This document shows, piece after piece, positions 1,757 to 38,245 of a stretch of 64,000 nucleotides of DNA (its first letter is position 1; each line of letters starts with the position of its first letter). A program made the translations under genes and the position numbers. Source of the DNA: a virus (taxonomy: Duplodnaviria > Heunggongvirae > Uroviricota > Caudoviricetes); the IMG/VR virus record IMGVR_UViG_3300029522_000074; one strand, 5' to 3'. The notes under the pieces are model-generated. The model did not search any database. It was not told the origin of the DNA and saw only the letters and a list, made by a program, of their open reading frames with translations.

Positions 1757-2122
1757 TTATCTCCAACTGATACTGTAATATGGTTCATTGTACTGAGTAC
1801 CAGTCTCGACTTTATAACCAAGTTCTTCTAATTTCTTTCGTGTTTCAGGTTTCAAAGAACCATCTTCACTAATTGAAAATTTGCCATCTGCAATCGCATC
1901 TCTAATTAATTTAGATAATTCTGCTAATTGTTGCGTAGTGCAGTTATCAATTGCGTTATTTGTCATCTTATTTGCTTCTGATGCAGACGGAATAACATTC
2001 TTTGGTGACTGAACTTCTGGCATAGGAATGTTGGAAGTAATAGCATCTTCACAACAATCTGCATCGCTACATCCTAAACAAAATTTATAACTTCTGTTAG
2101 TTATTGGGTACTTACAAGTCAT
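1757..2122 (-). CDS. hypothetical protein, Cys-rich N-terminus
   Basis: 121 aa; CxxC-rich N-terminal segment. Confidence 0.4.
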   Translation of the reverse strand: MTCKYPITNRSYKFCLGCSDADCCEDAITSNIPMPEVQSPKNVIPSASEANKMTNNAIDNCTTQQLAELSKLIRDAIADGKFSISEDGSLKPETRKKLEELGYKVETGTQYNEPYYSISWR

Positions 2123-2137
2123 TTATTCATCCTCCTT

Positions 2138-2575
2138 TTAAACCTGTTTATATAACTGATTTTGGAGCTTCCCTAATACCTTATTAACAGCAACCTTGCC
2201 CATTTCTTTATTCCATATTTCACCTTGTCTAACCCTTGCAAAGAATAAAGCATATTCTGAAATATTATTTTCCACATCTTCGTAAAATTTTTCGTCCTCT
2301 TCACTATCATCAAATTCAGATTTACATGAACTAATAATCATCACAGCTAAAAAATCTTTTGCAACCTGTATTAATCCGTCTGATGTCTTGATTTGATCAT
2401 TTAGAAAATCATTTGTTTCTATTGTTGATTTTTCTGGTACAGAAAAATAATATAACTGCTTAAAATCTTGCTCTTTTGTGTCTTCAATATGAATTCCCAT
2501 ATATTCTAATGTAAGTATAGTTTTAAGATTTTCTTCAATCTGTTTTGAATTATTCTCTAATTCTATTGGTATCAC
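2138..2575 (-). CDS. hypothetical protein
   Basis: 145 aa ORF, no recognisable motif. Confidence 0.4.
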   Translation of the reverse strand: MIPIELENNSKQIEENLKTILTLEYMGIHIEDTKEQDFKQLYYFSVPEKSTIETNDFLNDQIKTSDGLIQVAKDFLAVMIISSCKSEFDDSEEDEKFYEDVENNISEYALFFARVRQGEIWNKEMGKVAVNKVLGKLQNQLYKQV

Positions 2576-2842
2576 CTCCTACATTCCAACATATTCAGGA
2601 AATTTTTCATAGATTTTATTCCACTCTTCAATAATTCTTCTATTCATAATTTCCTGATCAATCAATTCTTCTACGATTTTTGCAGTAGCACACTGCGTCT
2701 GACTTCTAAGAATTTTACAAGCATTTTTCTTATACTCTTCTAAATCTTCTATAGAAACACTTGACAGCATTGTATTTTCATTTGTTAATCCTTGCATTAC
2801 TGATGGTGTTATCATTCGTTTCACCTCCACACGAAACCGATA

Positions 2843-3403
2843 TTACTTATTTTTTGATTCAAATTCTTCAAATGCTTTATAAAACTCACTGCCTTTTATC
2901 TCTTCAAAACCATTTTCATAAGGAGTTAATGAATTATAGCGATTAGTACTCATACGTAAGTATTGTTTTCCATTGTATTCAAAACTTGTTCTTGAATAGC
3001 CACCCATTTCCGTTTCTTCGAAGTAGTCTCCACACCTCAAAGGATAAGCATTAATAACTATCTCCTTTTTAATACATTCATCTTGAAATTGCTTTAATAT
3101 TTTGCAACCTTTTTTAAACTTTCTCATACTTTGACCTTCAAACATTTTAGGTTTGTTTAATTGATTACCAAATTTTTCACTATTTTCCTGCACATCATCA
3201 ATATACAATTCAATATTACTTTTTGTGTTTTCCTTAAACGCAACATTAACATTACCATCTCCACGCATATAATAATGATTTCCACTTATTCCTATGCGAT
3301 TGAAAAAATCTTTGATAAATTCTCTTCTGTTTTTTTCTATTACTTCATCACGATGTAACCCTTTTAAAAAATCTTCATTTGTTACAATATAAAATTTCTC
3401 CAT
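2843..3403 (-). CDS. hypothetical protein
   Basis: 186 aa ORF directly downstream of the AdSS-like gene. Confidence 0.4.
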   Translation of the reverse strand: MEKFYIVTNEDFLKGLHRDEVIEKNRREFIKDFFNRIGISGNHYYMRGDGNVNVAFKENTKSNIELYIDDVQENSEKFGNQLNKPKMFEGQSMRKFKKGCKILKQFQDECIKKEIVINAYPLRCGDYFEETEMGGYSRTSFEYNGKQYLRMSTNRYNSLTPYENGFEEIKGSEFYKAFEEFESKNK

Positions 3404-3445
3404 TTTTTACCTCCATATTTCCAAAAGAACGAATCTTTCTTGTTC

Positions 3446-4537
3446 TCAGTTCACATCATTATGTGTTTCACCATCTGAGTAATAAATATTCCAATCCTTG
3501 AATAACTCAATCAATTTATCATTATCCCAATCATATTCATTACAATGTGTAATGGTGATTGATTTTTTATCTCCAAAGTTTCCTATATCATTAGAGCATC
3601 TACTATATAATTCTCCTAAATCCAGTGTTCCATATCTCAATGTATCCTGGAATGGATTTGGCACATTTGTTTTATCAAACATATATTCGTTGATAAATCT
3701 CTTATTACATTCAGATGGGAATTTACCAGCACCATGTCTTGTTAAATAAGTACGCGATACATAACAAGTTTCAATATTTATCTCATCATTCCATTCAACA
3801 TTTTCAATTATTCTCTTGGGATTTTTAATACCTGTATTAGACGGTGTTAGATGTGGAAAATATTCTGTGTTGTTCTGATCAAGCAATAAACCTTGTGCAG
3901 CTTCAAATACAATATTGTCAAATTGATTTAAGAAATAATTATCTGATATAGCCAATGAGTGATTATTCATAAAATCCCAATCATCTAAAAAGTGTTCAAA
4001 TATACCATTATCAAGGAATATTTTTGACCATTCATCTGTTAATATAATATTCTCTCTTTCAAATTGTTCTAAGTAGTATTCCCTGATATGATTATCTACA
4101 TCAGTTATGCCAGCTTTATATCTTTTGATAGTTTCAAAAATTCCCAAGCCACAACTACCATGTTTATTTTTTCCACGATTTTCTTCTATAATCTGATTTG
4201 CCATCATATCAAAAGGTGTAGTCAACATACAATTTTGATTGATATAAACATTCGTAATATATCCTAATTTCATCAATTCATCATATTCCTGCTTAAAGAT
4301 AATTGGATTAACAATAAAATCCTCAGATAAATATGTACTTGCATGATTGAATGTTCCAGATCCAAAATGATGAAAGACATGTCTGATTCCATCAGGCGTT
4401 GTTACGGTATGTCCTCTCTGAGCACCACCATTTGAACAAACAACAATACTATTAGGTTTCTGTGAGAAATAATCTGTCATTAATCCCTTTCCACAATCTC
4501 CAAAGTTAGCACCTATTACAATCTTAATGTCTTTCAT
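3446..4537 (-). CDS. adenylosuccinate synthetase family protein, short form (PurA/PurZ-like)
   Basis: P-loop IVIGANFGDCGKG (compare GDEGKGK), GAQRGHTV (compare GHNAGHTV), EAAQGLLLDQNNTEYFPHLTPSNT (compare [22 protein letters not shown]), YLTRHGAGKFP (compare TTRVGSGPFP); 363 aa, the size of archaeal-type PurA and phage PurZ. Confidence 0.75.
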   Translation of the reverse strand: MKDIKIVIGANFGDCGKGLMTDYFSQKPNSIVVCSNGGAQRGHTVTTPDGIRHVFHHFGSGTFNHASTYLSEDFIVNPIIFKQEYDELMKLGYITNVYINQNCMLTTPFDMMANQIIEENRGKNKHGSCGLGIFETIKRYKAGITDVDNHIREYYLEQFERENIILTDEWSKIFLDNGIFEHFLDDWDFMNNHSLAISDNYFLNQFDNIVFEAAQGLLLDQNNTEYFPHLTPSNTGIKNPKRIIENVEWNDEINIETCYVSRTYLTRHGAGKFPSECNKRFINEYMFDKTNVPNPFQDTLRYGTLDLGELYSRCSNDIGNFGDKKSITITHCNEYDWDNDKLIELFKDWNIYYSDGETHNDVN

Positions 4538-4554
4538 CTCTTAAATCTCCTATC

Positions 4555-5454
4555 CTACCAAGTAATTCCTTCTGAGTTAGAAGGTGTAGTAACTGTATCT
4601 GTAACATTATTCTCTGCTTCACTAACAATAATATCTACAATCTCATTTGTAATACTATCCATAGTTACTCTTCTAAAGTGTGTATCATCAAGATACTTCT
4701 TGTAGGACTTCTCAATTTCTTCTTCATCCCATCTGTGACCGTGATTTACATCTAAATGATAAATGTTAAACTTCTGAGAAGCCTCTTCGTATAAATCCTT
4801 AGTCTCTACATCAGACTGAAGGTTATCACCTGTCACCTCTGATAAGCCATGACCTCTACTCTTAAATGGAAGATATGGATTTAACTGCTCATCACCCATT
4901 GTAATAATAATTCCTTTTCTTCTACGGTTTAAGCAATCAAGCTTTGTGTGACGAGAACCGAAATACCATGCTGCTGTGTAGGATTCATAACTATTTCCAC
5001 CACCGCCAAATTCAAAATAAATCTTGTCAAGCTGTTCAGCAATACGAATATCTGACTCAAACTGTGAAGCCTGAATTGGATAGCTATCACAAGCTAAATC
5101 ACCAATACCCATGATAAGGAACTCAACATCTGTAACCTTTTCATATAACTTAGTCATAATTACATTTAACTTCTTTGCCACTTCAACGGCAGCCTGTCCC
5201 ATAGAACCAGTTACATCAAGTGCAAGAATAACAGGAATTGTGTTTGGATGTTCCTCTGTATCGCAACACTCTCTAATAACATTCTTAGGATCAAGTGCAG
5301 AATCAATATTTCTTGCCTTAAACATGTCCTGATTAGAATAAGAACCTCTAATCATACCATCCGTTGAAACACTCATACCCTTTGTTGTTGAATAACTTAC
5401 ATAACTATCTCTTGTCCATGAACCGCATCCCATATTATGCCTCCTCCTCTTCAT
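4555..5454 (-). CDS. von Willebrand factor A (VWA) domain protein
   Basis: MIDAS motif ILALDVTGSM (DxSxS-type) followed by a VWA-like alpha/beta pattern; start may be an internal Met. Confidence 0.55.
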   Translation of the reverse strand: MKRRRHNMGCGSWTRDSYVSYSTTKGMSVSTDGMIRGSYSNQDMFKARNIDSALDPKNVIRECCDTEEHPNTIPVILALDVTGSMGQAAVEVAKKLNVIMTKLYEKVTDVEFLIMGIGDLACDSYPIQASQFESDIRIAEQLDKIYFEFGGGGNSYESYTAAWYFGSRHTKLDCLNRRRKGIIITMGDEQLNPYLPFKSRGHGLSEVTGDNLQSDVETKDLYEEASQKFNIYHLDVNHGHRWDEEEIEKSYKKYLDDTHFRRVTMDSITNEIVDIIVSEAENNVTDTVTTPSNSEGITW

Positions 5455-6052
5455 CTACTTCTGTATCATCGTCATCATTGCTACTCATATCAAAGTCGAA
5501 CATTCCGTCAAACATATCACCCATATTTCCACCCATCATCATAAGTGGTAACATAGAACTCATTCCACCATTGCCATTCATCATGCCAGCAGAACCATTA
5601 TCACTTTTCATCATCTGAGAAAGCATCATGTACTTAAAGATATTATTTGTACCTTTCTTACCTTTAATAACATCACTTCCAAACATCGAAACAATCTTTC
5701 CATAAAAATATGTATTGCCCATAAATACATGTCTTTCAGGAAGCACGGTTTCAATTGTTGAGTCCTCATAATTGATTACTGTAATCTTTGTCTTATCGGC
5801 TTCAATAACACATCTTGGCTTACCATTTACAAGAATGATGTCACCCTTCTCTACCTTATTAGTTGGAATAATAAAGAAGAATTCCTCTCCAATATCAAAT
5901 ACAAAGTTACTACAGTTTGTGAGCTTGCCAGTCTTGATGTTATATGTCTTATAACCACCATTTGTCTTAACTGCAATTCCACCATTCATAGAAAGTCTAC
6001 ACATTCCACTTCCTACCTTACCAAACATGCCATTTAAAAAATTGTTCATCAT
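5435..6052 (-). CDS. hypothetical protein with Met/Gly-rich region and poly-acidic C-terminus
   Basis: 205 aa; C-terminal MMGGNMGDMFDGMFDFDMSSNDDDDTEVDEEEEA low-complexity tail. Confidence 0.4.
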   Translation of the reverse strand: MMNNFLNGMFGKVGSGMCRLSMNGGIAVKTNGGYKTYNIKTGKLTNCSNFVFDIGEEFFFIIPTNKVEKGDIILVNGKPRCVIEADKTKITVINYEDSTIETVLPERHVFMGNTYFYGKIVSMFGSDVIKGKKGTNNIFKYMMLSQMMKSDNGSAGMMNGNGGMSSMLPLMMMGGNMGDMFDGMFDFDMSSNDDDDTEVDEEEEA

Positions 6053-6838
6053 ATTTATTTCCTCCTATGATATAAAATTATTGTTTACAATTACTTATTC
6101 TCTTAACTGCGACATTCTCATCAATTCTTCTTTGTCTGCTTCTGATAATGTCAATCCTGCTTTAATCCAAGCCTCTGTCTGTTCATCAATTTTCTTCTTA
6201 TATCCACCTTGAATTATCCCATTTTCACTTAGCAACCTCTTACAATTCTCATACTGAATATCATTTGTCTCATGTGCATTTCTAAGATTACTTTCTAAGC
6301 AGCGAATAATATCAATCAGCTCATCTTTTGTCATAGACTTTAATGTACTATCTGAATATGTTCTTCTTCCATCACCTATCGCCATGTTCAACCTGCTTAA
6401 ACAATCTAGCTGGAAATTCGTCTATATCGCCATCTTTATAAGCCTGTTCTTCACCAACCCAAACAATTTCAATTTTATTAGGATTAAAATTTGATCTACC
6501 AATAAAATAAGCCTTCTTACCTTTTTTATAAAATGTTGTATCCTCAATTAATTCAATAATATCTCCTCTTTTCATTCTTTTTCCTCCGATTTTTCATAAT
6601 ACTGTTTTATTAATTAGCTGTCCTATATAATTATTCTCCTATAACTATTTAAAACATCATTTATCTTATCAACTAATATTGTTGGATCACTTGACATACG
6701 ACATACAAATTCATCATTACAATAAACTTCATATACATCATCATATTCTGGTCTTCCCCAACAATCACATCCATTTACAACTTCAGTTTTCTCTATACGA
6801 AATATATTAATCACCTCCCAAGAAAGAAAAATTTCTTT

Positions 6839-7477
6839 CTATGATTCAAACTGATAATCCTTGTTACTTACAAATTTGTCAATTTTTCCATCTTTGAAAA
6901 ATACAAATTCTGCATAAAAATCATCTGTATTTTCTGACATTGCACACGAAACATACTCATCAGATTCCTCGTCATATTTTTCAAACCATCTCTCAACGCC
7001 ATCATCAACTGTTGTATTTTTAAAAACAAAATATGGAAATTCATTTTCGTCAATTGACAAAATATCATTTGCTATTTCGGTAAATCTTTCAATAATATGT
7101 TCTCTTTTTAATACTGGGATATTATCTTCTTCTGATACATCATAAGTATCATTTTGTTTTAAGAATTGCATAATAGAATTTGAAATAATCTGTTTATCAG
7201 ATGTATGAAAAATCTGTTGATTTGACATCTCCCAACAAATCCTATCAGGTGTGTTATCGCACTCATTAATGGATTTGTTAGTTCTTGTCCATACATCGTT
7301 TCCGTCCATTCCAATAATTCCCTTTTTAAAACCAAATGGTGTTTGAATGTAATCATGAATATATTTATCTGGTAAGACGCTCCAAATTATAGGAGAAAAC
7401 CACCATGAGTTTTTATATTCAAATATTTCTTCTCCTGTATAGTCTTTTCTTATTCCATAAATACTACTACTGCTCAT
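6839..7477 (-). CDS. hypothetical protein
   Basis: 212 aa ORF. Confidence 0.4.
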   Translation of the reverse strand: MSSSSIYGIRKDYTGEEIFEYKNSWWFSPIIWSVLPDKYIHDYIQTPFGFKKGIIGMDGNDVWTRTNKSINECDNTPDRICWEMSNQQIFHTSDKQIISNSIMQFLKQNDTYDVSEEDNIPVLKREHIIERFTEIANDILSIDENEFPYFVFKNTTVDDGVERWFEKYDEESDEYVSCAMSENTDDFYAEFVFFKDGKIDKFVSNKDYQFES

Positions 7478-7496: not shown

Positions 7497-8258
7497 TTAA
7501 TCTAACCACCTATTATCCAAATAATAGAACCCAAATACCATTCCTCCGATTAAAATAACCCAAAAGATCCAGAAAATAATAATTGGAAAATCAGATTCTA
7601 ACCTTTCTATCGTCTCGTCAATAGTCGAATTATTATAAAATGATGTGTTATCAGAAATGGTTTTATCTCTCAAATCTGTAAAAATTGTTCCTTTATATTC
7701 AGTACCAACGCCATAATATTTATACCTTATATGACTTGATTCCTTGATAGTGTCAATATAATCAGTACCAGGTAAATCAATTTTATTACTTGTGAAATTT
7801 ACTCCACAAAATGATACTTCTTTACACTTAATATCTTCACTTCCGACTCTATCCCAAGTCCAATATGTTTCTGTTGTATAATAAGTTTGTGATTTGCCAT
7901 TAACAGTTCTTGTATGAGCTACTTGTCTTGTATGCATTGTGTATTGCTCTTTGACTTTTTCTACATACATATATTCTCCATCAATTTCAGGATATGTAAC
8001 TGTATCTACTGTTTTCAAATCACCATATACAAACGCATTACCAACATTTGTATCCATTCCATATTGGAACATTTCTTGACTTTCTATCTTAACAGCTTTG
8101 TTATAAATTTCATTTTTATCCATTTGATATTCTGAAATCTTAGAAGAAATCAGAATACCAAACAGAATCATAACTGCAATGATAGAAATACTAGCCAAGA
8201 TTTCACGTTTTGTTATTTCAAAATTGCCAAAATCAAAACCTTTTCTACCATATCTCAT
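7497..8258 (-). CDS. membrane protein with N- and C-terminal TM segments (possible TPM-like partner of LemA)
   Basis: 253 aa; hydrophobic segments near both termini; immediately downstream of LemA, as LemA-TPM pairs are arranged in bacteria. Confidence 0.4.
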   Translation of the reverse strand: MRYGRKGFDFGNFEITKREILASISIIAVMILFGILISSKISEYQMDKNEIYNKAVKIESQEMFQYGMDTNVGNAFVYGDLKTVDTVTYPEIDGEYMYVEKVKEQYTMHTRQVAHTRTVNGKSQTYYTTETYWTWDRVGSEDIKCKEVSFCGVNFTSNKIDLPGTDYIDTIKESSHIRYKYYGVGTEYKGTIFTDLRDKTISDNTSFYNNSTIDETIERLESDFPIIIFWIFWVILIGGMVFGFYYLDNRWLD

Positions 8259-8261
8259 AGA

Positions 8262-8813
8262 CTAATCCTCTTTAAACAAATCCTGCGGAGCATCAACTGG
8301 TGCATTGTAATCCAAATACTCATATTCCTGTACTTCATATCCAAGCAATCCAAGAAACTGTCTTGTAGGGAACTTTCTCACATATCGTTTGTATTCCTTA
8401 ATCTGTTTATTGTAATTGCTGCGATATTCTGCAATCATATTCTCTGTCATAGATAACTCATTCATAAGAGTCTTATAGTTCTCATTGGACTTCAACTCAG
8501 GATATGCTTCTGCAACTGCTGTAATAGCTGTTGTTACATTCTCAATATCCCCTGTTGATCCACGACCATCTGCAACCGCTGTCAATGTATCAGCTTCATG
8601 TTTGTCATACTGTTTTACACAATCAGCAAGGTTATATACAAGATCAACTCTTCGCTTTTCCTGTACCTTAATATCTGATGACGCTGTATTTACCTGCTCT
8701 TCAAGTGCAATAGCCTTATTCTGTGAACTCTGTACACCAAATACAATCATCAAAATAACTGCTAATACTCCTACGCCAATAATTACTGGCACTTTCCAAT
8801 TTGTGTTCTTCAT
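8262..8813 (-). CDS. LemA family protein
   Basis: N-terminal TM, then AYPELKSNENYKTLMNELSMTENMIAEYRSNYNKQIKEYKRYVRKFPTRQF matching the LemA signature. Confidence 0.7.
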   Translation of the reverse strand: MKNTNWKVPVIIGVGVLAVILMIVFGVQSSQNKAIALEEQVNTASSDIKVQEKRRVDLVYNLADCVKQYDKHEADTLTAVADGRGSTGDIENVTTAITAVAEAYPELKSNENYKTLMNELSMTENMIAEYRSNYNKQIKEYKRYVRKFPTRQFLGLLGYEVQEYEYLDYNAPVDAPQDLFKED

Positions 8814-12605: not shown

Positions 12606-12803
12606 TTATTCTCCTAATTTCCTTCCACACCAAGGACAATACGAAATATATTCTTTCTGATGAACAAATCCATCGTCATATTCATCCCATTCAGAAGTTT
12701 CAATATCCAAATAATATTCATTTGTCAGTGGATCAACATATATCTGATTGTCAGGTGAATCATAATTACAACGGTTACACATACACTTACCTCGCTCTAT
12801 CAC
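12606..12803 (-). CDS. small zinc-ribbon protein
   Basis: CxxC...CPWCG motifs; 65 aa. Confidence 0.35.
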   Translation of the reverse strand: MIERGKCMCNRCNYDSPDNQIYVDPLTNEYYLDIETSEWDEYDDGFVHQKEYISYCPWCGRKLGE

Positions 12804-13671
12804 ATTCGTTAAAATCTAAAAGCATCTTATATTTATATTCTCCAAATCTTTCTTTCCAACGCTGCTTTGCTTTATCAGTATCCCAACTAAAAGGCATCAT
12901 ATGGTAATTGATGAGGAAACATGTATCTAAAACAACATCAGAATTAACATGATACATAGCTGTCATGTATTGATATGAACCGTAACAATGATGCTGATAA
13001 TAATGAGCTATCCCATCTTCATCAAATGTTTGTGTACTCAATTTGCCTAAATCGTGATACAAAGCACCTATTCTGAATCTTGCAGGATAAGCATATTTTG
13101 TGGAAAATAATCTTGATGCATATTTGCAGTGTTCAAATAAATTCATTGTATGATGCGGACTTTTCTGATCAAATCCTCTCATATCTGGAATATCATTTGG
13201 TTCGTAATCATTTAATAAATTATGAATAATAATCTCATCGAATCCTTCCTCGTAGAACGGAATCTGAAATTTTCTAATCTGCTTATCCAACACAAAGTCA
13301 GGTACAGGATGTTCTCTATGTAGATTATCTTTTTTGCACTGTTCAAATGGCTTTGGAATAATTACACATACTTTTCTGACATTTAAACCATTTACTTTCA
13401 TCATAATTGCTCTGCGAGATTTCATAGTCAGATTAGTCGCATCTGCGATTACATTCTTTTTATTCTCCAAATTCTTACGGATTCTATCATGAAAAATTTT
13501 GAATACTTCTTCATTATGTTCTTGATTTTCGTAATTACCAGTCAATTCCTCACGAATTGCATCGGATGATACGATTATTGTATTTGGATTCTCATTGGCA
13601 ATCTGAGTGGCAATGGTTGACTTGCCACTACCACTCAAACCACACATAATATACAATGTAGGTTTATTCAT
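12787..13671 (-). CDS. P-loop kinase fused to HD phosphohydrolase (polynucleotide kinase-phosphatase-like RNA repair enzyme)
   Basis: N-terminal Walker A GLSGSGKST typical of PNK-type kinases; C-terminal HD signature ALYHDLGK...HYYQHH...D; 8-nt overlap with the upstream RNA ligase gene. Confidence 0.6.
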   Translation of the reverse strand: MNKPTLYIMCGLSGSGKSTIATQIANENPNTIIVSSDAIREELTGNYENQEHNEEVFKIFHDRIRKNLENKKNVIADATNLTMKSRRAIMMKVNGLNVRKVCVIIPKPFEQCKKDNLHREHPVPDFVLDKQIRKFQIPFYEEGFDEIIIHNLLNDYEPNDIPDMRGFDQKSPHHTMNLFEHCKYASRLFSTKYAYPARFRIGALYHDLGKLSTQTFDEDGIAHYYQHHCYGSYQYMTAMYHVNSDVVLDTCFLINYHMMPFSWDTDKAKQRWKERFGEYKYKMLLDFNECDRAR

Positions 13672-14983
13672 TTAAAGTCTCCTCGAATAACTCTTCAGCT
13701 TCTTCCATATCAGGCACATCAGATGTATCTTTAGCAATCCCCTCAATTACCTTAAATTCAAACACCTTATCCTTATAAGCTGTGAATGTTGCTCTATTAT
13801 CAATACGAACAACTACACCTTCAGCAACATGTGTCTTACCGATTTCATCTGCTGGCATACCATCAAGATATTTATTTACTCTTTCTTTCAAATCTTCTGG
13901 TGTAGTAAAAATAAACTTCTCTAAATCAGGTACATGCTTAACGCCCAACTTGTCACACCATACTTCTACAGTTTCCCAAGGCACTTCAACAACTGTTCCG
14001 TCTGCTGTTGTCATTGTCATTCGATATACATACATCTCATTTTCGCCTTGTTCACAGCCATATGAGAATGTTGTGGTGTCACCAAATTTCTTAGTAAATT
14101 CTTTTTCCTTAACTCCCTTATTAGATACTGAACCCATAATTGGTGTTGTTTCATTTACATATCCGACAATTTCATAGAAAATTTCAGCACCTTCAGGAAG
14201 CTTGTCTTTTAATAAATCGTGGTACTTCTTTCTAAATCCATTATCAGAATAATATCCATCATTCTTTGTCATATCCTTTAACACAACTCTTCTGCTACCA
14301 GATACAACAGAAACTTCTCTTATAACCTTTGGTTTCATATGTAAAAACTTTCTCAGCTTACTATTCTTCTTTGTAACCTTAACAGTCTTCATAGTACGAG
14401 CCGATGTTCCGTGGAGCTTACGAGTAATATAAATTGTATCTCCTGGCTTAAATGCTGATATATTATATGCAAGCTGTGCAGTATCTTTATGCTCCTCAAA
14501 AAATGGATATGATACTGTTTCTTTCTGAAACTTATTTTTCTTCTTTAAATTATTTCCATTACCTCTTGAACGATTTTTTCCTCTTGGAATATATTTTTGA
14601 CAAATCTCATGACCACCAAGAACTGTAATCTGATCGCCATCTTTTAATTTTGAAATATCTGTATACTTAGAAAGTGTTTCAACAGGTAATACAAGTCCTT
14701 CTGACTTCTCACCTCTAAGTCTAATAGCGGTTACATTTCTCTTCTCAGCATCCATATAACCACCAATGTTGTTTCCATTCTTATCTTTCTTTCTGACAAG
14801 GTTATTATCTGCTGCATACTCAAGTGATAACTGACCGTCAGATGGGAAGAATACTACTTTCTGTCCTTCCTGATAATTCAAATCTACAATTACATTCTGT
14901 CCAAATACCTCTACACACTGTAACCTATCAGCGTTACTATGTTTTCTTAATCCTTTTAATGTTGTGATATAAGCACAATACAT
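13664..14983 (-). CDS. ATP-dependent RNA ligase-like protein (N-terminal OB-like domain plus nucleotidyltransferase)
   Basis: Candidate motif I lysine in ITRKLHGTSA; 439 aa; co-transcribed with the kinase/HD gene as in phage tRNA-repair modules. Confidence 0.5.
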   Translation of the reverse strand: MYCAYITTLKGLRKHSNADRLQCVEVFGQNVIVDLNYQEGQKVVFFPSDGQLSLEYAADNNLVRKKDKNGNNIGGYMDAEKRNVTAIRLRGEKSEGLVLPVETLSKYTDISKLKDGDQITVLGGHEICQKYIPRGKNRSRGNGNNLKKKNKFQKETVSYPFFEEHKDTAQLAYNISAFKPGDTIYITRKLHGTSARTMKTVKVTKKNSKLRKFLHMKPKVIREVSVVSGSRRVVLKDMTKNDGYYSDNGFRKKYHDLLKDKLPEGAEIFYEIVGYVNETTPIMGSVSNKGVKEKEFTKKFGDTTTFSYGCEQGENEMYVYRMTMTTADGTVVEVPWETVEVWCDKLGVKHVPDLEKFIFTTPEDLKERVNKYLDGMPADEIGKTHVAEGVVVRIDNRATFTAYKDKVFEFKVIEGIAKDTSDVPDMEEAEELFEETLNE

Positions 14984-15053: not shown

Positions 15054-15710
15054 TTAATCTTCTAATTTGTTACCTTTTGCTTCATTACAAAGCTTACACA
15101 TTGTTTGATAGTTACTAATATCATCAATACCACCTTTTGAGCGTGGCATAATATGATCTTTTGTCATTAAAATTTCATCACCATTATCATCAACTGCATA
15201 CAAATTTAGATGATAACTTTTATCCTGTAAATGTCTTTCTTTTGCAAAATATTTTCCTTCAATTCCACAAACTACGCATTTACAACCTTTAGTAAAAAAT
15301 GTTTGGTATCTTTGGCTATTGCCCTTAATCAAATCTCCATCAAAATCAACTTTTGCAAGTTTTTTATCTTTCTCAAATAAAACATCCTTTACTTTATCTC
15401 TGACTTCTTCTATTGAATAGATTTCTTTCCTAAGTAATTTTGTAGGATTAAAATCTTTTAAAAGCGTTTTTACTTCACCTAATTTAAAACATTTTTCAAA
15501 TAGCGGTTGCTTGTGCCAAGTTACGGATAATAATTCCGTATCGTTTGTAGGTGACATTGGATTATTATTCTTAGGGAAATCGGTTTCTAAAAAATCCCGT
15601 ATTGTCTCAAACCTCAAAGACAATACCTTATCATCGACTTTGTATTGGATTTTAAATTTTTTATCTTTTCTTCGCATAAAACATATCTCCTTATAATTTA
15701 ATGTCGTCAC
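15054..15710 (-). CDS. HNH endonuclease
   Basis: C-terminal DHIMPRSKGGIDDISNYQTMCKLCNEAKGNK HNH motif. Confidence 0.7.
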   Translation of the reverse strand: MTTLNYKEICFMRRKDKKFKIQYKVDDKVLSLRFETIRDFLETDFPKNNNPMSPTNDTELLSVTWHKQPLFEKCFKLGEVKTLLKDFNPTKLLRKEIYSIEEVRDKVKDVLFEKDKKLAKVDFDGDLIKGNSQRYQTFFTKGCKCVVCGIEGKYFAKERHLQDKSYHLNLYAVDDNGDEILMTKDHIMPRSKGGIDDISNYQTMCKLCNEAKGNKLED

Positions 15711-19759: not shown

Positions 19760-20497
19760 TTACGCCTGATACATAAAACTTGGCATTGGCTGTAATTTAA
19801 ACAGATTTTTCTCATGCATTGAATCAATCTTAGCTTTTACTTCCTCATTTGGCTCAATTCCATCTCTGATATATGCATCTAATTCAGCATAAGTAAATCC
19901 AAGGTTATCTTCATCAGTCTTTCCGCAAAGACCATCGGTAGGTGTCTTATCAACTAATTCTGACGGAAGCCCCAACTCACGACCAATAGCTTTAACCTCT
20001 GTTACTGTAAGCTGAGATAACGGACTGAAATCACCAGCAGCGTCACCATATTTCGTGGCGTAACCCACCCAATCTTCGGAAAGATTACACGTATTTGCAA
20101 CTCGACCATTTACTGTCTGTGATACTGCATAAAGCGTAGTCATACGAATACGAGCAGGAAGATTTGTTGTTGTCTGAATTGATAACTCTTCATCTAATGA
20201 TGTTTTAATTTCATATTCAGTAACATTCACAATTGTTCCGACTGGAATAATAGTACGTGGAATGTCTAAAAAACTGCAAAGTTTACGACTATATTCGATA
20301 TCTCTTTGTCTTCCCTGTGGCATCATCACACCAAAAACTCTATCCTTACCAAGAGCTTCTACACATAATGCAGCTACAACACTTGAATCCTTACCGCCAG
20401 AAATTCCCACTACTGCCATACAATCTTTACCATTCTGTTCAAACCAATTTCTGATCCACTCTACGATTTCATTTTTTACTTTCTTAGCATCAAACAT
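19760..20497 (-). CDS. nadE: NH3-dependent NAD+ synthetase
   Basis: PP-loop VVGISGGKDSSV, ARIRMTTLYAV, DFSPLSQLTVTEVKAIGRELGLP; 245 aa like Bacillus NadE. Confidence 0.85.
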   Translation of the reverse strand: MFDAKKVKNEIVEWIRNWFEQNGKDCMAVVGISGGKDSSVVAALCVEALGKDRVFGVMMPQGRQRDIEYSRKLCSFLDIPRTIIPVGTIVNVTEYEIKTSLDEELSIQTTTNLPARIRMTTLYAVSQTVNGRVANTCNLSEDWVGYATKYGDAAGDFSPLSQLTVTEVKAIGRELGLPSELVDKTPTDGLCGKTDEDNLGFTYAELDAYIRDGIEPNEEVKAKIDSMHEKNLFKLQPMPSFMYQA

Positions 20498-20513
20498 TTA
20501 TATATTCTCCTTC

Positions 20514-21140
20514 CTACATTCGATTCATCACATCATAGAACCGAATTAAATACTCATATACATTTCTAGGAACTAATTCTTTTACCTTTTCAAATTCACT
20601 CTTTTCACATAAATCTCTAACCAAACTTGAAGAAGTATGATTTTCTGGTATCTGAATTTCTGTGAAGTGATCTTTATATTCCATAAGATTTGCTTCTCTT
20701 AAAGCAGTCTCAAGATTCTGACCTTCTCTCACACATGCTACAAAATTATATTCCTCAACAAACGGTTTCCAATTATACCAAGTTGTAAGTGTTTCAATAT
20801 TATCCATTCCTAAACAAATATAGTATTCGTTGAAGATATAATCTTTTTCATTCATATCTCTTATCTGAGTAATAGTATTGTATGTCCTCTGTGGAAAGAA
20901 GCTGGTTGTTTCAACTTCGGATGCCCACATATTATTTTCATCACAATTTGGCATTGAATTAATTAGCGATACTCGACAATATCCAGGTATCAAAGTCTTT
21001 TTCTTCGCAACATATGTATCATGTGCAGGAATAAACAATATAGCATCGGCATTAACCGCTTTTTTAGCAGTCAATGCCATATCAACATGGGCGTTGGTAA
21101 TTGGATTAAAACTTCCTGGTATAAGTAAAATTTTATTCAT
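20514..21140 (-). CDS. nadD: nicotinate/nicotinamide mononucleotide adenylyltransferase (NadD/NMNAT-like)
   Basis: Nucleotidyltransferase motif PGSFNPITNAHV (HxGH-type); adjacent to pncB and nadE. Confidence 0.6.
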   Translation of the reverse strand: MNKILLIPGSFNPITNAHVDMALTAKKAVNADAILFIPAHDTYVAKKKTLIPGYCRVSLINSMPNCDENNMWASEVETTSFFPQRTYNTITQIRDMNEKDYIFNEYYICLGMDNIETLTTWYNWKPFVEEYNFVACVREGQNLETALREANLMEYKDHFTEIQIPENHTSSSLVRDLCEKSEFEKVKELVPRNVYEYLIRFYDVMNRM

Positions 21141-22434
21141 GATCCATTCTCCAATTAATACATCTCTTTAGATAATCAACATAATCAGGGTTTTTACACA
21201 TGCCTTTGCCTTCTACATCAGACACTTTTGCAACATCCATACCATTACATTTAGTGGTTTTCATTACAATATTTAAAGCAGGAACATCTGTGTCATTACT
21301 CAAATAAGTACCAATTCCAAATGCAACGTTTACTCTATCATGGAAGTGTCTAAATAACTTATCAGCTCTTTCAAAATCAAGACTGTCACTAAACAGAAGT
21401 GTCTTTGTCTTAGGATTGATACCAAGTGACTCATAATGATTAATCATTTTTTCACCCCATTCAATCGGATCGCCACTATCATGTCTTACACCACTGAATA
21501 ATGTTGCATATGTCAACTGAAAATCTTTCAAGAAACAATCAGTTGTAATTGTATCTGTGAGCGCAATACCATTTAACACACCATACTCTCTAACCCATGC
21601 GTCTAGGGCATACCAGTTTGAATATGCTGGATTGTGCTTGTGATTACCCTGACCAGAACACATAATCCATTCATGAGCCATAGTTCCAACAGGTGTAAGG
21701 TTATATTTCTTTGCAAGATATACATTAGAAGTGCCAACAAACTTAGATGGACTATGCAATGTATCATTCAAATGTGAAAACTTCTCAACAACTAATTCCT
21801 GTGCTTCAGCAGAAAGTCTTCTTCTAAGACCAAATTCAGAAAATGTACCAGCATACCAATGACCGCTTCTGAGATTTTCATACTTTTCATCTAATCTCTT
21901 TTTGAAACTATTAAGTAATTCCTCATAGTTATATGCCATTCTGAAATATACTTCGTTTACAATCGCAAGTGTAGGAATCTCATACATAGATGTATTAAGC
22001 CATGTACCAAATGTTTCGATAGAAAGACCGCAATCTGAATCTGTTGTAATTTCAAAATCCTCATATCTTGGCTGCCATAATCTCAGAAAATCAACATACG
22101 AACCTTTCATCCATTTGATATTATCAATATAAGTAAGTTCATCTTCTGTGAATCTCAAACCACAATATAATTTAATCTGTCTGCGAATCTCTTCTACCAT
22201 TTCTGGTGTAAAATGAACATCCTTATTACGACACTTAAAACTCCAAGTGGTTTTATAATCACTAAACTGATGATAAATAGCCTGTCCCATTGACAATTTG
22301 TAAGCATCTGTCTCCAATAAACTTGTAATAATCTGTTTCATATTATTTTCCTTCTTTCTTGATTTGATTAAATATTGTTCTAATATCATATTCTCTGTTT
22401 TCGTACTCATAAAACAGATTAATATACTTATCAA
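21133..22434 (-). CDS. pncB: nicotinate phosphoribosyltransferase
   Basis: LLETDAYKLSMGQAIYHQF matches E. coli PncB LLDTDAYKLHMQQAVFHH; likely true start is the internal Met at about 22341 (about 402 aa). Confidence 0.8.
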   Translation of the reverse strand: MISILICFMSTKTENMILEQYLIKSRKKENNMKQIITSLLETDAYKLSMGQAIYHQFSDYKTTWSFKCRNKDVHFTPEMVEEIRRQIKLYCGLRFTEDELTYIDNIKWMKGSYVDFLRLWQPRYEDFEITTDSDCGLSIETFGTWLNTSMYEIPTLAIVNEVYFRMAYNYEELLNSFKKRLDEKYENLRSGHWYAGTFSEFGLRRRLSAEAQELVVEKFSHLNDTLHSPSKFVGTSNVYLAKKYNLTPVGTMAHEWIMCSGQGNHKHNPAYSNWYALDAWVREYGVLNGIALTDTITTDCFLKDFQLTYATLFSGVRHDSGDPIEWGEKMINHYESLGINPKTKTLLFSDSLDFERADKLFRHFHDRVNVAFGIGTYLSNDTDVPALNIVMKTTKCNGMDVAKVSDVEGKGMCKNPDYVDYLKRCINWRMDHE

Positions 22435-22909
22435 TAAAAGTTATGTCATTTGGATGCATTGCAATTGGCTTACTTTTCTTAGATTTCCACCATTTTAATT
22501 CCTTCTCAAAATTAAACGATTTACCATAATATGCTCTACCTGCTCCAAGATAATCACAAAACATTTCTTTTTTATACTTCGTTGGCATTTCAATAGGATT
22601 CCCACCATTATCAAAATTGTCCTGCCAATATTCGTAATGGTGCTTGTTTCTTCCTTTATGGTGCATCCAAGCTGCTGACCAACCATTCTCTTTCTTACAA
22701 GCATCTATTGGACTTGAAGTACCTTGATAATACTTAACACTCTCCCAAAATTCTGTTGGAGAAAATTTAGATAAATCATGTACTAACCCTTGAAATGGAA
22801 TTCCCACTTTACAGCAATAGTAGAACACCCAATGTTTATGCGTACAGACTTTCTTAAAATGTCTAAAAGTATTAATGATATAATTCTTATACTTCATTAT
22901 TCTCTCCAA
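22343..22909 (-). CDS. hypothetical His-rich protein, possible HD-type phosphohydrolase
   Basis: H...HDLSK...MHHKGRNKHH pattern loosely resembles an HD metal-binding signature; 188 aa inside the NAD cluster. Confidence 0.3.
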   Translation of the reverse strand: MERIMKYKNYIINTFRHFKKVCTHKHWVFYYCCKVGIPFQGLVHDLSKFSPTEFWESVKYYQGTSSPIDACKKENGWSAAWMHHKGRNKHHYEYWQDNFDNGGNPIEMPTKYKKEMFCDYLGAGRAYYGKSFNFEKELKWWKSKKSKPIAMHPNDITFIDKYINLFYEYENREYDIRTIFNQIKKEGK

Positions 22910-23411
22910 TCACTTCGATCTGACACATCTTCATAGTTGCTAATGCAGCCTTATGAGTATTAGGTGTGACACCCGCACAACAACTTGCGTCTACTGTAAT
23001 ATCAATTTCAGGATAATTTGCTCTAATAATAAGTGCATTTGAAACCACACAGATGTCGGTACATAATCCGCAAATCTCAACACTTTCAAATTTAAAATCA
23101 TCCCAATGAGTCCATCCAAAAGTAATTTTGTCAATCAGAATGTCATTATCAATATCAAAATCTAACTTATCTGAAATCTGCCAACCAACAGTATTCTTTA
23201 CACAGTGAATAACAGGAAGATGTACACCTTCATATGTCTCTAAATAATTCTCAGGGTGTGTGTCTCTTGTAAAGATTATCTGTTTACCAGCATCCTTGTA
23301 CTCCTTAATTTTCTTTGCTACATTTGATACAATCGCCTGTGCTTCCTTTGTACCAAGTGTTCCATCAATAAAATCATTCTGCATATCTACAACAATTAAT
23401 GTTTCTCTCAT
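22887..23411 (-). CDS. pncA: nicotinamidase (isochorismatase-family cysteine hydrolase)
   Basis: VVDMQNDF catalytic Asp, metal site TRDTHPENY...H, catalytic Cys in ICGLCTDICV. Confidence 0.8.
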   Translation of the reverse strand: MRETLIVVDMQNDFIDGTLGTKEAQAIVSNVAKKIKEYKDAGKQIIFTRDTHPENYLETYEGVHLPVIHCVKNTVGWQISDKLDFDIDNDILIDKITFGWTHWDDFKFESVEICGLCTDICVVSNALIIRANYPEIDITVDASCCAGVTPNTHKAALATMKMCQIEVIGENNEV

Positions 23412-23506: not shown

Positions 23507-24856
23507 TTAATATTCCCAATCATCATTCCTAACTTGGAATACATCGCCACACTCTTCAATATCTGGATAATTATATGTGGCAACATTCATAGCATATTTA
23601 TCTATTTCGTATGCTTTATATGTAATATTTGTAAATCCCATTTTCTCCAAACAATACCTGCCAGTAGCAATACCATCATACAAACTTAGAACTTCAATAG
23701 GATAATCTCGTGGAACATTCTTCAATCCATGATTTAAAATGTGAATAATTACTTCTGCCGTCCATCCATTGCCAATTTGTTTATATCTCTGAGTAGCACT
23801 GTTTTTTGGTGCTGCTGTATAATTATCTGGTAATGTCTGTAGTCTTTCACATTCTAATGGTGTTAATTTACGGATAAGATAATATCCATCTTTTAGTTTT
23901 ATTGGGTATAATCCATCTTTATAGCCAATAAGACCGTCTTTAACAAGATAGATCATTTTCCCATCAACAGATAAATTTCCATTCTCATACCATTCAATCT
24001 TTTTATATTTGCTTAAATCAATTACTTCTATCTCTTCACACATAACATTGTATGGAACACCTTTATGCAGATTTGCCAATAGACACTGAGACTTGTCTTT
24101 GTTAGATACTTGAATATATCCAAAATCAAAATGATTTCTTCCACCTGCTACAGTTCTGACCATATATTCCATTTCTTTTTCACTGAGATGTTTAAAACTG
24201 TCTTCTGTAATGGAAATTGGTGTCATATACAAACCAGTTTTTGCACCTTGACCACCACCGTTACTTGTAAGATTTACACTTTTCCCATCTGAACTATATA
24301 CTCTATGAGCCTGAGCAGTTGTGTCTATATCACCAATACGAATAGGTTCATCACTTTCTGCAATATTAACAGGTGTAAAAGCTACTTGAGTATGATGTTT
24401 TTTTAAATAATCTCGTGCATTTCCTGCTTGATGTTTTAAACAATAGGCTTTCTCTTTATCAACAATTCCATATTCAAGTACGTCTTTTAAAAAGATATGT
24501 CGATCTTCTGGTTGTGGAACATTTGAAATATTTGTACAATAAATTCTCTTCCTCTGTTGTGCTGATACCAAAGCACTATTAATATGTAATAGTGGATAAC
24601 CCAATTCTTCACTAATCTGACTCTTTATTTCTTCCGCAGCGGATTCATTGTTTTCGTACAAAAAGATATCTGGTTTCCACCTTTCTTTCGCCACCACATA
24701 ATTTAAGAATAATTCCCATCCTTCTCCCTCTGCTTTTGTCTCACGATTTTTTCTTTGTGCAATAGACCAATGAGTGCATGGCGAACCACCTATTAACAAA
24801 CGTAATGGTTGTCCATTAAGTTCACAATAAGTATTTTTTTCTTTATTCTCTGTCAA
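23507..24856 (-). CDS. DNA cytosine-C5 methyltransferase with circularly permuted motif order (IV-VI-VIII-TRD-IX-X then I-II-III)
   Basis: GGSPCTHWSIAQ (PC motif IV), FLYENNE (ENV-like VI), QQRKRIY (VIII), RKLTPLECERLQTLPDNY and GNGWTAEVI (IX and X), then C-terminal SLYDGIATGRYCL (motif I FxGxG); probable TTG start. Confidence 0.65.
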   Translation of the reverse strand: MTENKEKNTYCELNGQPLRLLIGGSPCTHWSIAQRKNRETKAEGEGWELFLNYVVAKERWKPDIFLYENNESAAEEIKSQISEELGYPLLHINSALVSAQQRKRIYCTNISNVPQPEDRHIFLKDVLEYGIVDKEKAYCLKHQAGNARDYLKKHHTQVAFTPVNIAESDEPIRIGDIDTTAQAHRVYSSDGKSVNLTSNGGGQGAKTGLYMTPISITEDSFKHLSEKEMEYMVRTVAGGRNHFDFGYIQVSNKDKSQCLLANLHKGVPYNVMCEEIEVIDLSKYKKIEWYENGNLSVDGKMIYLVKDGLIGYKDGLYPIKLKDGYYLIRKLTPLECERLQTLPDNYTAAPKNSATQRYKQIGNGWTAEVIIHILNHGLKNVPRDYPIEVLSLYDGIATGRYCLEKMGFTNITYKAYEIDKYAMNVATYNYPDIEECGDVFQVRNDDWEY

Positions 24857-37237: not shown

Positions 37238-38245
37238 TTACATATTGTTTAACACATCTTTCATCCCCACTGCACCATTTGCATAATTATTAACTGTTGT
37301 ATTTACATTACTATGTCCTAACTGCTGCTGTACAAATGCAAGATTTCCATTTCTGTTCATTATACTAGCATAATAATGACGCATCATATGTGGTGTTATA
37401 CCATTTCCATAATTCTCAAATATCTGTTTGATATTTCTTTCTGTTGTACGAGTTCCATTTTTATTTACAAACACAGCTTCTGTATCAATAATGTTACTTA
37501 ATGTGCTTCTGTATTCTAACCACTCTCTTATAGCTTTTAAAGCAGATCCGCTAAGATATACCATTCTATTTTGCATTTCTCTGTACACACCTTTACCAAG
37601 AATAGTAATATAAGGCATTTCTTCATCCAAATGTAAATCAGACAAATCTAAACCAGCAAGTTCGGACTCTCTTATTCCAGTTCCTCTTAACACTCGAAAA
37701 ATAGCAATATTCCTATTTCTTACTGGAATATCCTTTTTCCACATTATCTTCTCTTCCATGTCGTTAAGCTGCTTTTCTGTTGGAAGTTTCTTAGTCAAGT
37801 TATTCCCAGATGGAATTCCTTTATAAGACACATCTTTAAAGAATCCATCTTTAATTTCAGTTCCCTTTACTCTACTCATATAATCCCAAAAGCTACTTAT
37901 CATATGCTTTCTGGTTTCCAATGTGGTTGGTGACATACCATTCTGTTCTTTATTTTTCAAATATAATGTAACATCCTCTGCCATAATATCAGTAAAATCC
38001 GATGGCTTAATATCTGAAATATTTGTTTTGTCAATAAGTTTTTCTTCAATAAACCAATTGAGTAAATCTACAATAACTCCAAGATAATTCAACGCACCTG
38101 CCTTACTCTCTATTCTAACAGTGAAATATTTTCTCATATATATAGGAAGATTTAACTCATCCAACTTGTTATTAAGCTTTTCAGCATTTTTGTTTTGTAC
38201 TTCTATTTTGTAACACATAATTATCAACCTCGCTTTCATAATCAT
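37238..38245 (-). CDS. tyrosine recombinase / integrase
   Basis: C-terminal catalytic motifs HMMRHYYAS and LGHSNVNTTVNNYA (R-H-R-Y family). Confidence 0.8.
   Translation of the reverse strand: MIMKARLIIMCYKIEVQNKNAEKLNNKLDELNLPIYMRKYFTVRIESKAGALNYLGVIVDLLNWFIEEKLIDKTNISDIKPSDFTDIMAEDVTLYLKNKEQNGMSPTTLETRKHMISSFWDYMSRVKGTEIKDGFFKDVSYKGIPSGNNLTKKLPTEKQLNDMEEKIMWKKDIPVRNRNIAIFRVLRGTGIRESELAGLDLSDLHLDEEMPYITILGKGVYREMQNRMVYLSGSALKAIREWLEYRSTLSNIIDTEAVFVNKNGTRTTERNIKQIFENYGNGITPHMMRHYYASIMNRNGNLAFVQQQLGHSNVNTTVNNYANGAVGMKDVLNNM

Follow-up and report, generated by a model that had tools for sequence, protein, structure and literature searches.

A VWA-paired branch of the adenylosuccinate synthetase superfamily, distinct from PurA and PurZ, in a large phage and in bacterial chromosomes

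What is an adenylosuccinate synthetase (AdSS) homolog doing in a large phage, and does it mark a genome built with 2-aminoadenine? This question is raised by the 64,000-nucleotide stretch of DNA analyzed here (the window), which derives from a Caudoviricetes virus (IMG/VR record IMGVR_UViG_3300029522_000074) and encodes a 363-aa AdSS-like protein beside a VWA-fold protein. A prediction made from the letters alone (the original prediction) had read this enzyme as PurZ-like, and thus as a possible sign of a 2-aminoadenine (Z) genome or of purine-pool manipulation, while hedging that it might be an unrelated use of an AdSS scaffold. Our results support the hedge: judged by its sequence, the AdSS-like enzyme is a third branch of the AdSS superfamily, neither PurA nor PurZ, and its gene forms an obligate pair with the VWA gene. 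The open reading frames (ORFs) named in that prediction were all confirmed in place on the minus strand (Table 1), which also carries all other genes of the first 12 kb and nearly all of those in the 64 kb of this AT-rich DNA (~31% G+C).

Membership of the AdSS superfamily is evident from profile searches. The 363-aa protein matches Pfam Adenylsucc_synt (PF00709) with an E-value of 1.2e-34 and a score of 120 against a gathering score of 27, although only over profile positions 1–281 of 416, and it matches phrog_1211 with an E-value of 1.3e-65. The best matches in a PDB sequence search were bacterial PurA proteins (E 8.7e-17), but the scores against the NCBIfam PurA models fall well below the respective cut-offs (82.9 vs 395.55 bits for TIGR00184; 99 vs 402 bits for NF002223). 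To place these scores at the residue level, 79 family members were aligned with E. coli PurA, whose numbering is used below. The phosphotransfer core is kept, with D13 in 77/77 aligned members, H41 in 78/79, and Q224 and T239 in 79/79; D13, K16, H41, and Q224 are all present in the window protein, each in at least 77 of the 79 members. G12, K16, G17, and the TRxG residues (T271-R272, G274, and G276) are likewise kept across the family, as are several residues that contact inosine monophosphate (IMP).

The claim that every hallmark AdSS motif is present was only partly borne out: GDCGKG, GHTV, AAQGLLLD, and TRHGAGKFP are all found, but the L-aspartate loop and K331/D333 are not conserved. In E. 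coli AdSS, the L-aspartate site is formed by T300, T301, R303, and R305. Across the AdSS-like family, G298 is replaced by N (77 members), T300 by an aromatic residue, T301 by Q (79), and R305 by L, F, or I, while R303 is deleted (79). The PurA loop TTGRRRR (within GATTGRRRR, E. coli G298–R306) thereby becomes N-x-aromatic-Q-G..R family-wide, and the window loop, NPFQDTL-RY, is one residue shorter. At the guanine-specificity motif, K331 gives way to H (44) or C (33) and position 333 is D (48) or N (31); S414 is retained in 51/79 members, and the window protein reads H-C-N at 331–333. Further family-specific changes relative to E. coli PurA are N38 to Q (77), I126 to H (77), T129 to C (74), and V273 to H (79). 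The resulting invariants of the family are Q38, H126, C129, H273, N298, Q301, and R306, among which H126, C129, and H273 are new to this family and would line or surround the nucleotide pocket. Since the window protein carries all family-specific residues, it looks functional. This pattern suggests that the activation chemistry has been kept, and that the site for the third substrate has been rebuilt and is strongly constrained. Membership of plain PurA is ruled out by the lost aspartate loop together with the sub-cut-off PurA scores.

Is the protein then a PurZ? PurZ or PurZ0 would condense dGMP with aspartate and start dZTP synthesis, yielding a phage genome with 2-aminoadenine. This reading is favored by the superfamily membership, by a protein size similar to PurZ, by the label “2-aminooxy adenylosuccinate synthetase” that PHROG 1211 and RefSeq attach to the relatives, and by the coverage of the search, which took in only 64 kb of the genome. 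The size argument is weak, as the median length of the AdSS-like family is ~400 aa. We aligned or searched phiVC8 PurZ, DatZ, and DpoZ, S-2L PurZ, MazZ, DatZ, and PrimPol, and E. coli PurA. The P-loop is GDCGKG in the window protein and GDEGKG in PurA, whereas both phiVC8 and S-2L PurZ have GSTGKG, i.e., a Ser where all 77 aligned AdSS-like family members have an Asp. In a 2026 survey, Ser occupied this position in 100% of 147 phage PurZ proteins and Asp in 99% of PurA (PMC12884076), and a 2025 preprint named this Ser (S14) as a determinant of dGMP selectivity (bioRxiv 10.1101/2025.10.22.683976). The NCBIfam PurZ model (NF038379, amino_Aden_PurZ) scores 43.6 bits against a cut-off of 300, tblastn similarity between PurZ and the window is confined to the N-terminal P-loop region (E 6e-4 for phiVC8 and 1.5e-5 for S-2L), and no PurZ structure is among the PDB sequence matches at E ≤ 0.001. 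Moreover, phiVC8 PurZ keeps the aspartate loop (TTVTKKVRR), which the AdSS-like family has lost; the C-terminal 80 residues, covering the ATP/dATP-stacking F295 and Y298 (phiVC8 numbering), align unreliably with PurZ.

The genomic context points the same way. The original prediction saw none of DatZ, MazZ, and DpoZ unambiguously in the window, and with phiVC8 and S-2L queries, neither these nor PrimPol gave any tblastn match in the 64 kb. In the phage collection, no DatZ homolog was found in the Mycobacterium or Rhizobium phages that carry the VWA/AdSS-like pair, and the DatZ homologs that do occur belong to phiVC8-like and other small phages. The pair is also present in ordinary bacterial chromosomes. 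On residues, model scores, and the lack of Z-cluster genes in the 64-kb window, we reject the PurZ and Z-genome interpretation, which is largely refuted and which we now regard as extremely improbable; the cassette very probably does not make Z-DNA. The window also encodes a C5 cytosine DNA methylase (23507–24856, 449 aa) and a GmrSD_N/DUF262 protein (39410–40210, 266 aa). The original prediction had tied two DUF262/GmrSD-like proteins, as proteins that act on modified DNA, to a Z genome, and nothing was found that backs this link.

If the enzyme does not travel with a Z cluster, its constant companion is the VWA gene. Using the VWA alignment as query against one genome of each prokaryotic species, we obtained 80 diverse loci, which together with three phage loci and the window form a set of 84. 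In 80 of the 84, the next gene after the VWA gene, on the same strand, is the AdSS-like gene; of the four exceptions, three are loci truncated directly behind the VWA gene. The loci come from Bacillota (Lachnospiraceae, Ruminococcus, Clostridium), Bacteroidota (Bacteroidales), Alphaproteobacteria, Gammaproteobacteria (Competibacter), Acidobacteria, Cyanobacteria, Patescibacteria, and three phage groups. Vibrio phage pv27, Rhizobium phage Y65, and Mycobacterium phage Sebata each encode a VWA homolog (31–35% identity) just upstream of the AdSS-like gene, with a small ORF intervening in pv27 and Sebata. Across phage records, the numbers of VWA and AdSS-like genes are nearly equal (201 vs 202 in Mycobacterium, 10 vs 10 in Rhizobium, and 6 vs 6 in Vibrio phages), and MT835469 has both. 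The pairwise identities of the two proteins co-vary (r = 0.81, 78 loci). Overall, the VWA and AdSS-like genes are an obligate pair.

Several of the loci are plainly chromosomal and not prophage, and the cassette is widespread in bacterial chromosomes and has been captured by several lineages of large phages. Scanning viral contigs with the VWA alignment returned close relatives only and added no diversity. Apparent Listeria, Staphylococcus, and Escherichia “phage” members without a VWA gene were discarded, as these are 2–7 kb fragments that match like host purA (residues 6–276, ~27% identity); such records (OR848908, OR845472, OR849879) inflate counts of “phage AdSS homologs”. When all ORFs of the 84 loci were clustered, only four recurrent neighbors emerged: c7, a J-domain pseudokinase, NrtR, and PncA. 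A purine-salvage neighborhood was rejected, since a xanthine/uracil permease stands beside the cassette in one locus only. One Lachnospiraceae contig has the order aldo-keto reductase, c7, VWA, AdSS-like, NrtR, and purine permease, and Clostridium sp. D43t1 has riboflavin biosynthesis genes near the cassette.

What the VWA partner contributes may be read in part from its conservation. The 299-aa ORF matches phrog_2971 (E 2.5e-69) and no Pfam family, VWA models included; its structural model, of moderate confidence, predicts an alpha/beta Rossmann-like fold of the VWA type. All database homologs begin at the eighth codon of this ORF (MGCGSW..., 292 aa). Among the 86 VWA genes of the 84 loci, 79 have an ATG right before a Gly codon with an AGGAGG-type Shine-Dalgarno sequence 5–10 nt upstream, and three more also start with MG; the same N-terminal MG is found in 142/149 independent representatives, within a motif G-x-[GAS]-x-W-x4-[WFY]-x2-[YH]. 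An invariant free N-terminal glycine is very unusual, and a role as adaptor alone does not explain it. A D73-x-T75-G76-S77 motif of the type found in metal ion-dependent adhesion sites (MIDAS) is 93–100% conserved. At least 90% conservation is reached by R54, E55, D58, D112, D116, Q121, Q124-F125-E126, G144-G145, E150-S151-Y152, D166, and G180-D181-E182, and QxxQFExD, GGG(G)N..ESY, and GDE are invariant motifs. D112 and D181 are conserved after beta strands, and on the moderate-confidence model may be distal MIDAS ligands. Together, these residues suggest that the protein bears a conserved putative MIDAS metal-ion site.

The VWA family comprises 2137 representatives at 50% clustering (790 at E < 1e-30), spread over many phyla. 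In a search for fusions (“Rosetta stone” proteins), the best 150 of the 2137 representatives were all stand-alone proteins of ~300 aa, bar one intein-bearing allele. Inteins usually occupy functionally critical sites. In some Bixzunavirus VWA alleles, an intein sits right before the GDE motif and extends the protein to 595 aa vs ~340 aa (P0123; also 60%-coverage matches to mycobacteriophage records such as MH590593, KX831080, and NC_028986). Two alphaproteobacterial loci have tandem duplicate VWA genes before a single AdSS-like gene (L127, 6022–8014; L143, 6016–8007), and a second, different VWA-type protein (DUF2828/DUF7788, TROVE-like, 510 aa) is encoded near the cassette in two others (L111, 3481–5013; L114, 10232–11713).

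The first gene of the cassette comes in two forms. The Met/Gly-rich 205-aa protein, c7, is, like the VWA protein, a real and conserved companion: its homologs lie directly upstream of the VWA gene in 24/84 loci, and databases hold 5056 of them. It consists of a beta-rich N-terminal domain, a Met/Gly-rich segment, and an acidic tail (...MLPLMMMGGNMGDMFDGMFDFD...DDDDTEVDEEEEA), has no match in Pfam, PHROG, NCBIfam, or PADLOC, and gave an AlphaFold2 model of poor quality (pLDDT 39.6). Its Met/Gly-rich, acidic tail resembles chaperone tails and chaperone-binding segments. In 39 loci, the place of c7 is taken by a J-domain protein (~346 aa), which never occurs alongside c7. The HPD motif of the J domain is kept in 94–97% of members, and in the kinase-like domain HRD has become H-N-G/A/S and DFG has become GGWW; with both aspartates lost, this is a pseudokinase with a conserved J domain. 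The mycobacteriophage protein annotated as “Ser/Thr kinase” belongs to this group, and an active Ser/Thr kinase as first gene was rejected because the HRD and DFG aspartates are gone in nearly all 39 members.

In the window, c7 and the VWA gene are joined by a translational-coupling junction, which reads GAGGAGGAGG, GCA TAA, 1 nt, and ATG GGA (the VWA start). The stretch GAGGAGGAGG consists of codons of the acidic tail of c7 and doubles as Shine-Dalgarno sequence for the VWA gene, whose ATG lies 1 nt past the c7 stop codon. The trio of c7, VWA, and AdSS-like genes is present in 80/80 close viral relatives, in which the flanking ORFs vary, and the one near-identical public phage record (MT835469) shares positions 3453–6082 only. 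We thus take the trio as the unit and exclude orf186, which is seen in just 22/80 close viral relatives, has no homolog in the 84 diverse loci, and falls outside the MT835469 match. No intrinsic terminator was found within window positions 2000–7000.

The physiological setting of the cassette is suggested by its bacterial neighborhoods. An NrtR-type regulator (Nudix plus NrtR_WHD, E 8e-20) is encoded near the operon in 42/84 loci, mostly within 300 bp, and is placed divergently upstream in 17, co-directionally upstream in 12, and downstream in 12 loci. A palindrome, TGTTAT-N6/7-ATAACA, occurs in the divergent nrtR/operon spacer of eight loci (L129, L137, L140, L141, L151, L162, L163, and L165) from Ruminococcus, Oscillospiraceae, Competibacter, and another proteobacterium. 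Mostly, ~95–115 nt separate it from the start of the operon downstream, but in L162, L165, and also L115, where it is likewise present, it is found at −131 to −238. It is rare elsewhere in the 843 kb of loci and is a candidate operator; the candidate sequence for the NrtR-like protein is TGTTATTATGATAATAACA. NrtR proteins let go of their operators upon binding ADP-ribose, a product of NAD+ cleavage (PMC2330246). A PncA-type isochorismatase gene stands at the cassette in 5 loci, and in gut relatives both NrtR and PncA directly adjoin it.

NAD+ salvage genes also occur in the phages. The window itself has, at 19760–23411, a compact and full nicotinamide-to-NAD route with a DUF5662 gene inside (Table 1), and Rhizobium phage Y65 has phosphoribosyltransferase-like and NMNAT/Nudix genes 4 kb upstream of the pair. 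The window further encodes an RNA repair pair, and a Pnk-like gene adjoins the cassette in L114 and in mycobacteriophage Sebata as well. Taken together, the recurrent NrtR/NAD association across unrelated lineages suggests, on circumstantial grounds, a setting for the cassette, and is the best clue to it.

What reaction, then, might the cassette carry out? Our overall picture, to which we give about an even chance, is a VWA-coupled ligase, linked to NAD and ADP-ribose status, that would activate a purine nucleotide and join it to some nucleophile, though not to free aspartate. Because the complete phosphoryl-transfer machinery is kept, the enzyme would most likely take an IMP-like purine nucleotide and transfer a phosphoryl group from an NTP to its 6-oxo group, after which an amine would displace the phosphate. 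This amine is probably not that of free aspartate, since the aspartate pocket has been rebuilt alike in every member. The VWA protein is probably bound to the enzyme, either to bring in the nucleophile or to make up for the lost binding residues, and the pair is probably connected with the Hsp70 chaperones of the host through c7 or the J-domain pseudokinase. As an NrtR-type regulator often adjoins the operon, and NrtR regulators characterized elsewhere sense ADP-ribose, the bacterial operon is probably switched on while NAD+ is broken down. The phage copy has no such regulator and lies in a region with NAD+ salvage and RNA repair genes, which would fit an auxiliary role, such as in nucleotide and NAD homeostasis, or one in counter-defense.

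Several points weigh against this picture. The substrates are proposed from residue patterns, the physical interaction of the AdSS-like and VWA proteins from gene order and co-divergence, and the possible chaperone link of c7 from the composition of its tail; the window, moreover, has no J-domain protein. Aspartate could still be accepted despite the rebuilt loop, as the partner may supply arginines in trans. The NrtR link is drawn from bacterial loci, and from half of these, with no NrtR-like ORF and no TGTTAT-N5-8-ATAACA site in the window. The palindrome is unlike the GT-N7-AC core of most NrtR sites (PMC2330246), and, as the divergent promoter region that holds it is common to nrtR and the operon, its sole role could be the autoregulation of nrtR. 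Finally, the Z-cluster search covered 64 kb of a ~155-kb genome.

The supply of arginines in trans is the core of one alternative, in which the two proteins together would be a true AdSS that makes adenylosuccinate from IMP, GTP, and aspartate, with the VWA protein returning the lost arginines (e.g., R54). Such a two-piece enzyme would open a route to AMP and ATP under its own regulation, possibly insensitive to ppGpp, for times when NAD+ and adenylates need rebuilding, and in the phage would be an auxiliary metabolic gene for purine-pool manipulation. There is precedent for the principle, in that R143 of E. coli AdSS is already supplied by the dimer partner. All phosphotransfer and several IMP-contacting residues are kept, the protein is nearer to PurA than to PurZ, and the N-terminal region of the VWA protein offers the invariant R54/E55/D58; NrtR and NAD-salvage genes are close by, NAD synthesis consumes ATP, and the xanthine/uracil permease adjoins the cassette in its one locus. 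However, T300, T301, R303, and R305 have been swapped for a different invariant motif and not merely degraded, and the scores lie far under the PurA equivalog cut-offs. This alternative also leaves unexplained the new invariant His/Cys/His of the nucleotide pocket, the invariant N-terminal glycine, and the J-domain partner, and neither purB nor other purine genes recur nearby, the permease being seen once. We consider it unlikely. The invariant glycine is instead central to a more specific form of the ligase picture, in which the alpha-amine of the VWA N-terminus would take the place of aspartate and attack the 6-phosphoryl purine nucleotide, leaving the VWA protein with an N6-linked adenylate-type group (~+330 Da if the nucleotide is IMP) that could serve in signaling, as a decoy, or as an intermediate primed for a further step. 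The nucleophile of AdSS is, after all, the alpha-amine of an amino acid, the lost arginines are those that hold the two carboxylates of aspartate, and a peptide backbone could be accommodated by their replacements, the neutral N298, Q301, and an aromatic side chain at position 300. Met is normally removed ahead of Gly; the N-terminal Met-Gly is essentially invariant across phyla and is followed by a conserved aromatic motif, and the genes are obligately adjacent and co-diverging, with no fusions or other architectures among the best 150 of 2137 VWA representatives. This form gives the best account of two features at once, the missing carboxylate-binding arginines and the invariant glycine. Nevertheless, it is purely inferential, we know of no precedent for such chemistry on a protein N-terminus, and a stoichiometric, self-modifying substrate would be an unusual design. 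The N-terminal motif could equally be a docking peptide or a metal ligand, and conjugation by itself explains neither the MIDAS site nor the NAD link. We therefore see it as a long shot. The same holds for its wider form, which we rate just as low: in bacteria, ADP-ribose would switch the conjugation on via NrtR, Hsp70 co-chaperones would handle it, and large phages would have borrowed it to cope with NAD+-depleting immunity.

A role in conflict has also to be weighed, whether as bacterial or prophage defense, superinfection exclusion, or phage counter-defense, in which the enzyme would destroy, sequester, or re-make a nucleotide second messenger or a depleted nucleotide. The patchy distribution suggests horizontal transfer, the module is mobile among gut phages, and the phage cassette sits with NAD+ salvage and RNA repair genes. 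The association with NrtR-type regulators is also reminiscent of ADP-ribose-centered conflict systems with vWA “chaperones”, in whose description the VWA/AdSS-like pair is not included (PMC9503650). Against this, a PADLOC-DB 2.0 search (E ≤ 0.01) with c7, orf186, the J-domain pseudokinase, and both the VWA and the AdSS-like protein gave no match, by which a known defense system was rejected. No nuclease, NADase, or pore effector recurs nearby, and several bacterial loci lie among ordinary metabolic genes and not in defense islands. A conflict system with a different chemistry thus appears distinctly unlikely to us.

How does the cassette compare with known systems? With PurA, the enzyme shares the superfamily and fold region, GDxGKG with Asp13, His41 in GHT, Gln224 in AQG, Thr239, and TRxGxG; it differs by lacking T300, T301, R303, and R305, by having H or C for K331 and invariants of its own, and by its VWA partner, as PurA is, to our knowledge, never paired with a VWA protein. 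With PurZ and PurZ0 (phiVC8, S-2L, SH-Ab 15497, Ghobes), it has in common that it is a short phage-borne protein of the AdSS superfamily under PHROG 1211 and the same RefSeq product name. However, PurZ has the Ser and an aspartate loop, whereas the AdSS-like family has an Asp, no such loop, and members on bacterial chromosomes. Systems in which a vWA adaptor works with a motor (CbbQ-CbbO Rubisco activase, NorQ-NorD, BchI-BchD Mg-chelatase) may offer an analogy for how the cassette works, but a MoxR/AAA+ ATPase is not among its recurrent neighbors, and a J-domain pseudokinase or c7 is found instead. The TerY-P triad, reportedly defined by Anantharaman, Iyer and Aravind in 2012, is said to unite a vWA protein, a Ser/Thr kinase, and a PP2C phosphatase. 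It resembles the cassette in that a VWA protein stands beside a kinase-fold protein in a small operon; the cassette, however, has no PP2C, its kinase-fold protein has a J domain and no catalytic aspartates, and the AdSS-like enzyme has no counterpart in the triad. The NrtR regulon (Rodionov et al. 2008, PMC2330246) is similar in that NrtR lies near half of the loci, often divergently and with a palindrome in between, and NAD salvage genes are sometimes adjacent, but the VWA/AdSS-like pair is not among its listed members (PMC2330246), the palindrome core differs, and the window has no NrtR.

Databases do list the family, but only under the label “PurA-like” or under the mistaken PurZ name (“2-aminooxy adenylosuccinate synthetase”). 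Mycobacteriophage papers merely repeat the “PurA-like” label, and the 2026 survey split 481 viral matches into PurZ and “other PurA homologs”, leaving the latter uncharacterized (PMC12884076). In our literature search, we found no paper that joins adenylosuccinate synthetase with vWA and phage, or with NrtR, and none that describes how the VWA and AdSS-like genes are paired, the invariant N-terminus, c7 or the J-domain protein as partners, or a connection to NrtR.

Other genes of the window were recorded alongside. A gene for a LemA-family protein (8262–8813; its PHROG is annotated as virion structural protein) is followed by one for a phrog_3886 protein (7497–8258) with hydrophobic stretches near both ends; this pair (7497–8813) is kept in about one-third of the close viral relatives. 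The window also has a pair of tyrosine recombinase genes (Phage_integrase; 37238–38245, 335 aa; 44380–45399, 339 aa) that match the same Pfam profile positions and may be paralogs, which would be unusual in a large phage of ~155 kb.

Table 1 Features of the cassette and of the NAD+ and RNA repair regions in the window.
Feature	Position	Strand	Remarks
orf186	2843–3403	−	186 aa; outside the cassette
AdSS-like enzyme	3446–4537	−	363 aa; AdSS superfamily, by sequence a third clade, neither PurA nor PurZ
VWA-fold partner	4555–5433	−	292 aa from M8; ORF as listed extends to 5454 (4555–5454), 299 aa; fold predicted
Translational-coupling junction	5431–5450	−	Read from the sequence
c7, first cassette gene	5435–6052	−	205 aa; Met/Gly-rich, acidic tail
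AAA_33/Pnk-like kinase	12787–13671	−	RNA repair pair
RNA ligase with OB domain	13664–14983	−	RNA repair pair; overlaps the kinase gene
HNH endonuclease	15054–15710		After the RNA repair pair
NadE	19760–20497	−	NAD+ block
NMNAT-like cytidylyltransferase	20514–21140	−	NAD+ block
NAPRTase	21133–22434	−	NAD+ block
DUF5662	22343–22909	−	Embedded in the NAD+ block
Isochorismatase/PncA-like	22887–23411	−	NAD+ block

These results bear on how phage genomes are annotated. More than 200 phage genomes, including all Bixzunavirus mycobacteriophages, Rhizobium Kleczkowskaviridae, and ~190-kb Vibrio phages, carry the gene under the PurZ product name, inherited from PHROG 1211, and surveys that take AdSS-domain matches as markers of Z genomes would therefore overcount. 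The P-loop residue (Asp vs Ser) and the VWA neighbor cleanly separate the AdSS-like family from PurZ. Beyond annotation, we know of only two reactions for the AdSS scaffold, those of PurA and PurZ. The intact activation machinery, the redesigned third-substrate site, and the obligate protein partner argue for a new one, of which this branch offers a realistic chance. With its recurrent link to NrtR and NAD+ salvage, the system falls within NAD+/ADP-ribose biology, a central theme of present research on bacterial immunity. Phages amenable to experiment (Bxz1/I3-type mycobacteriophages) are among its carriers, as are hosts that can be cultured (Clostridium drakei, Inquilinus limosus). If conjugation to the VWA N-terminus were true, the cassette would represent a previously unknown kind of protein–nucleotide conjugation.

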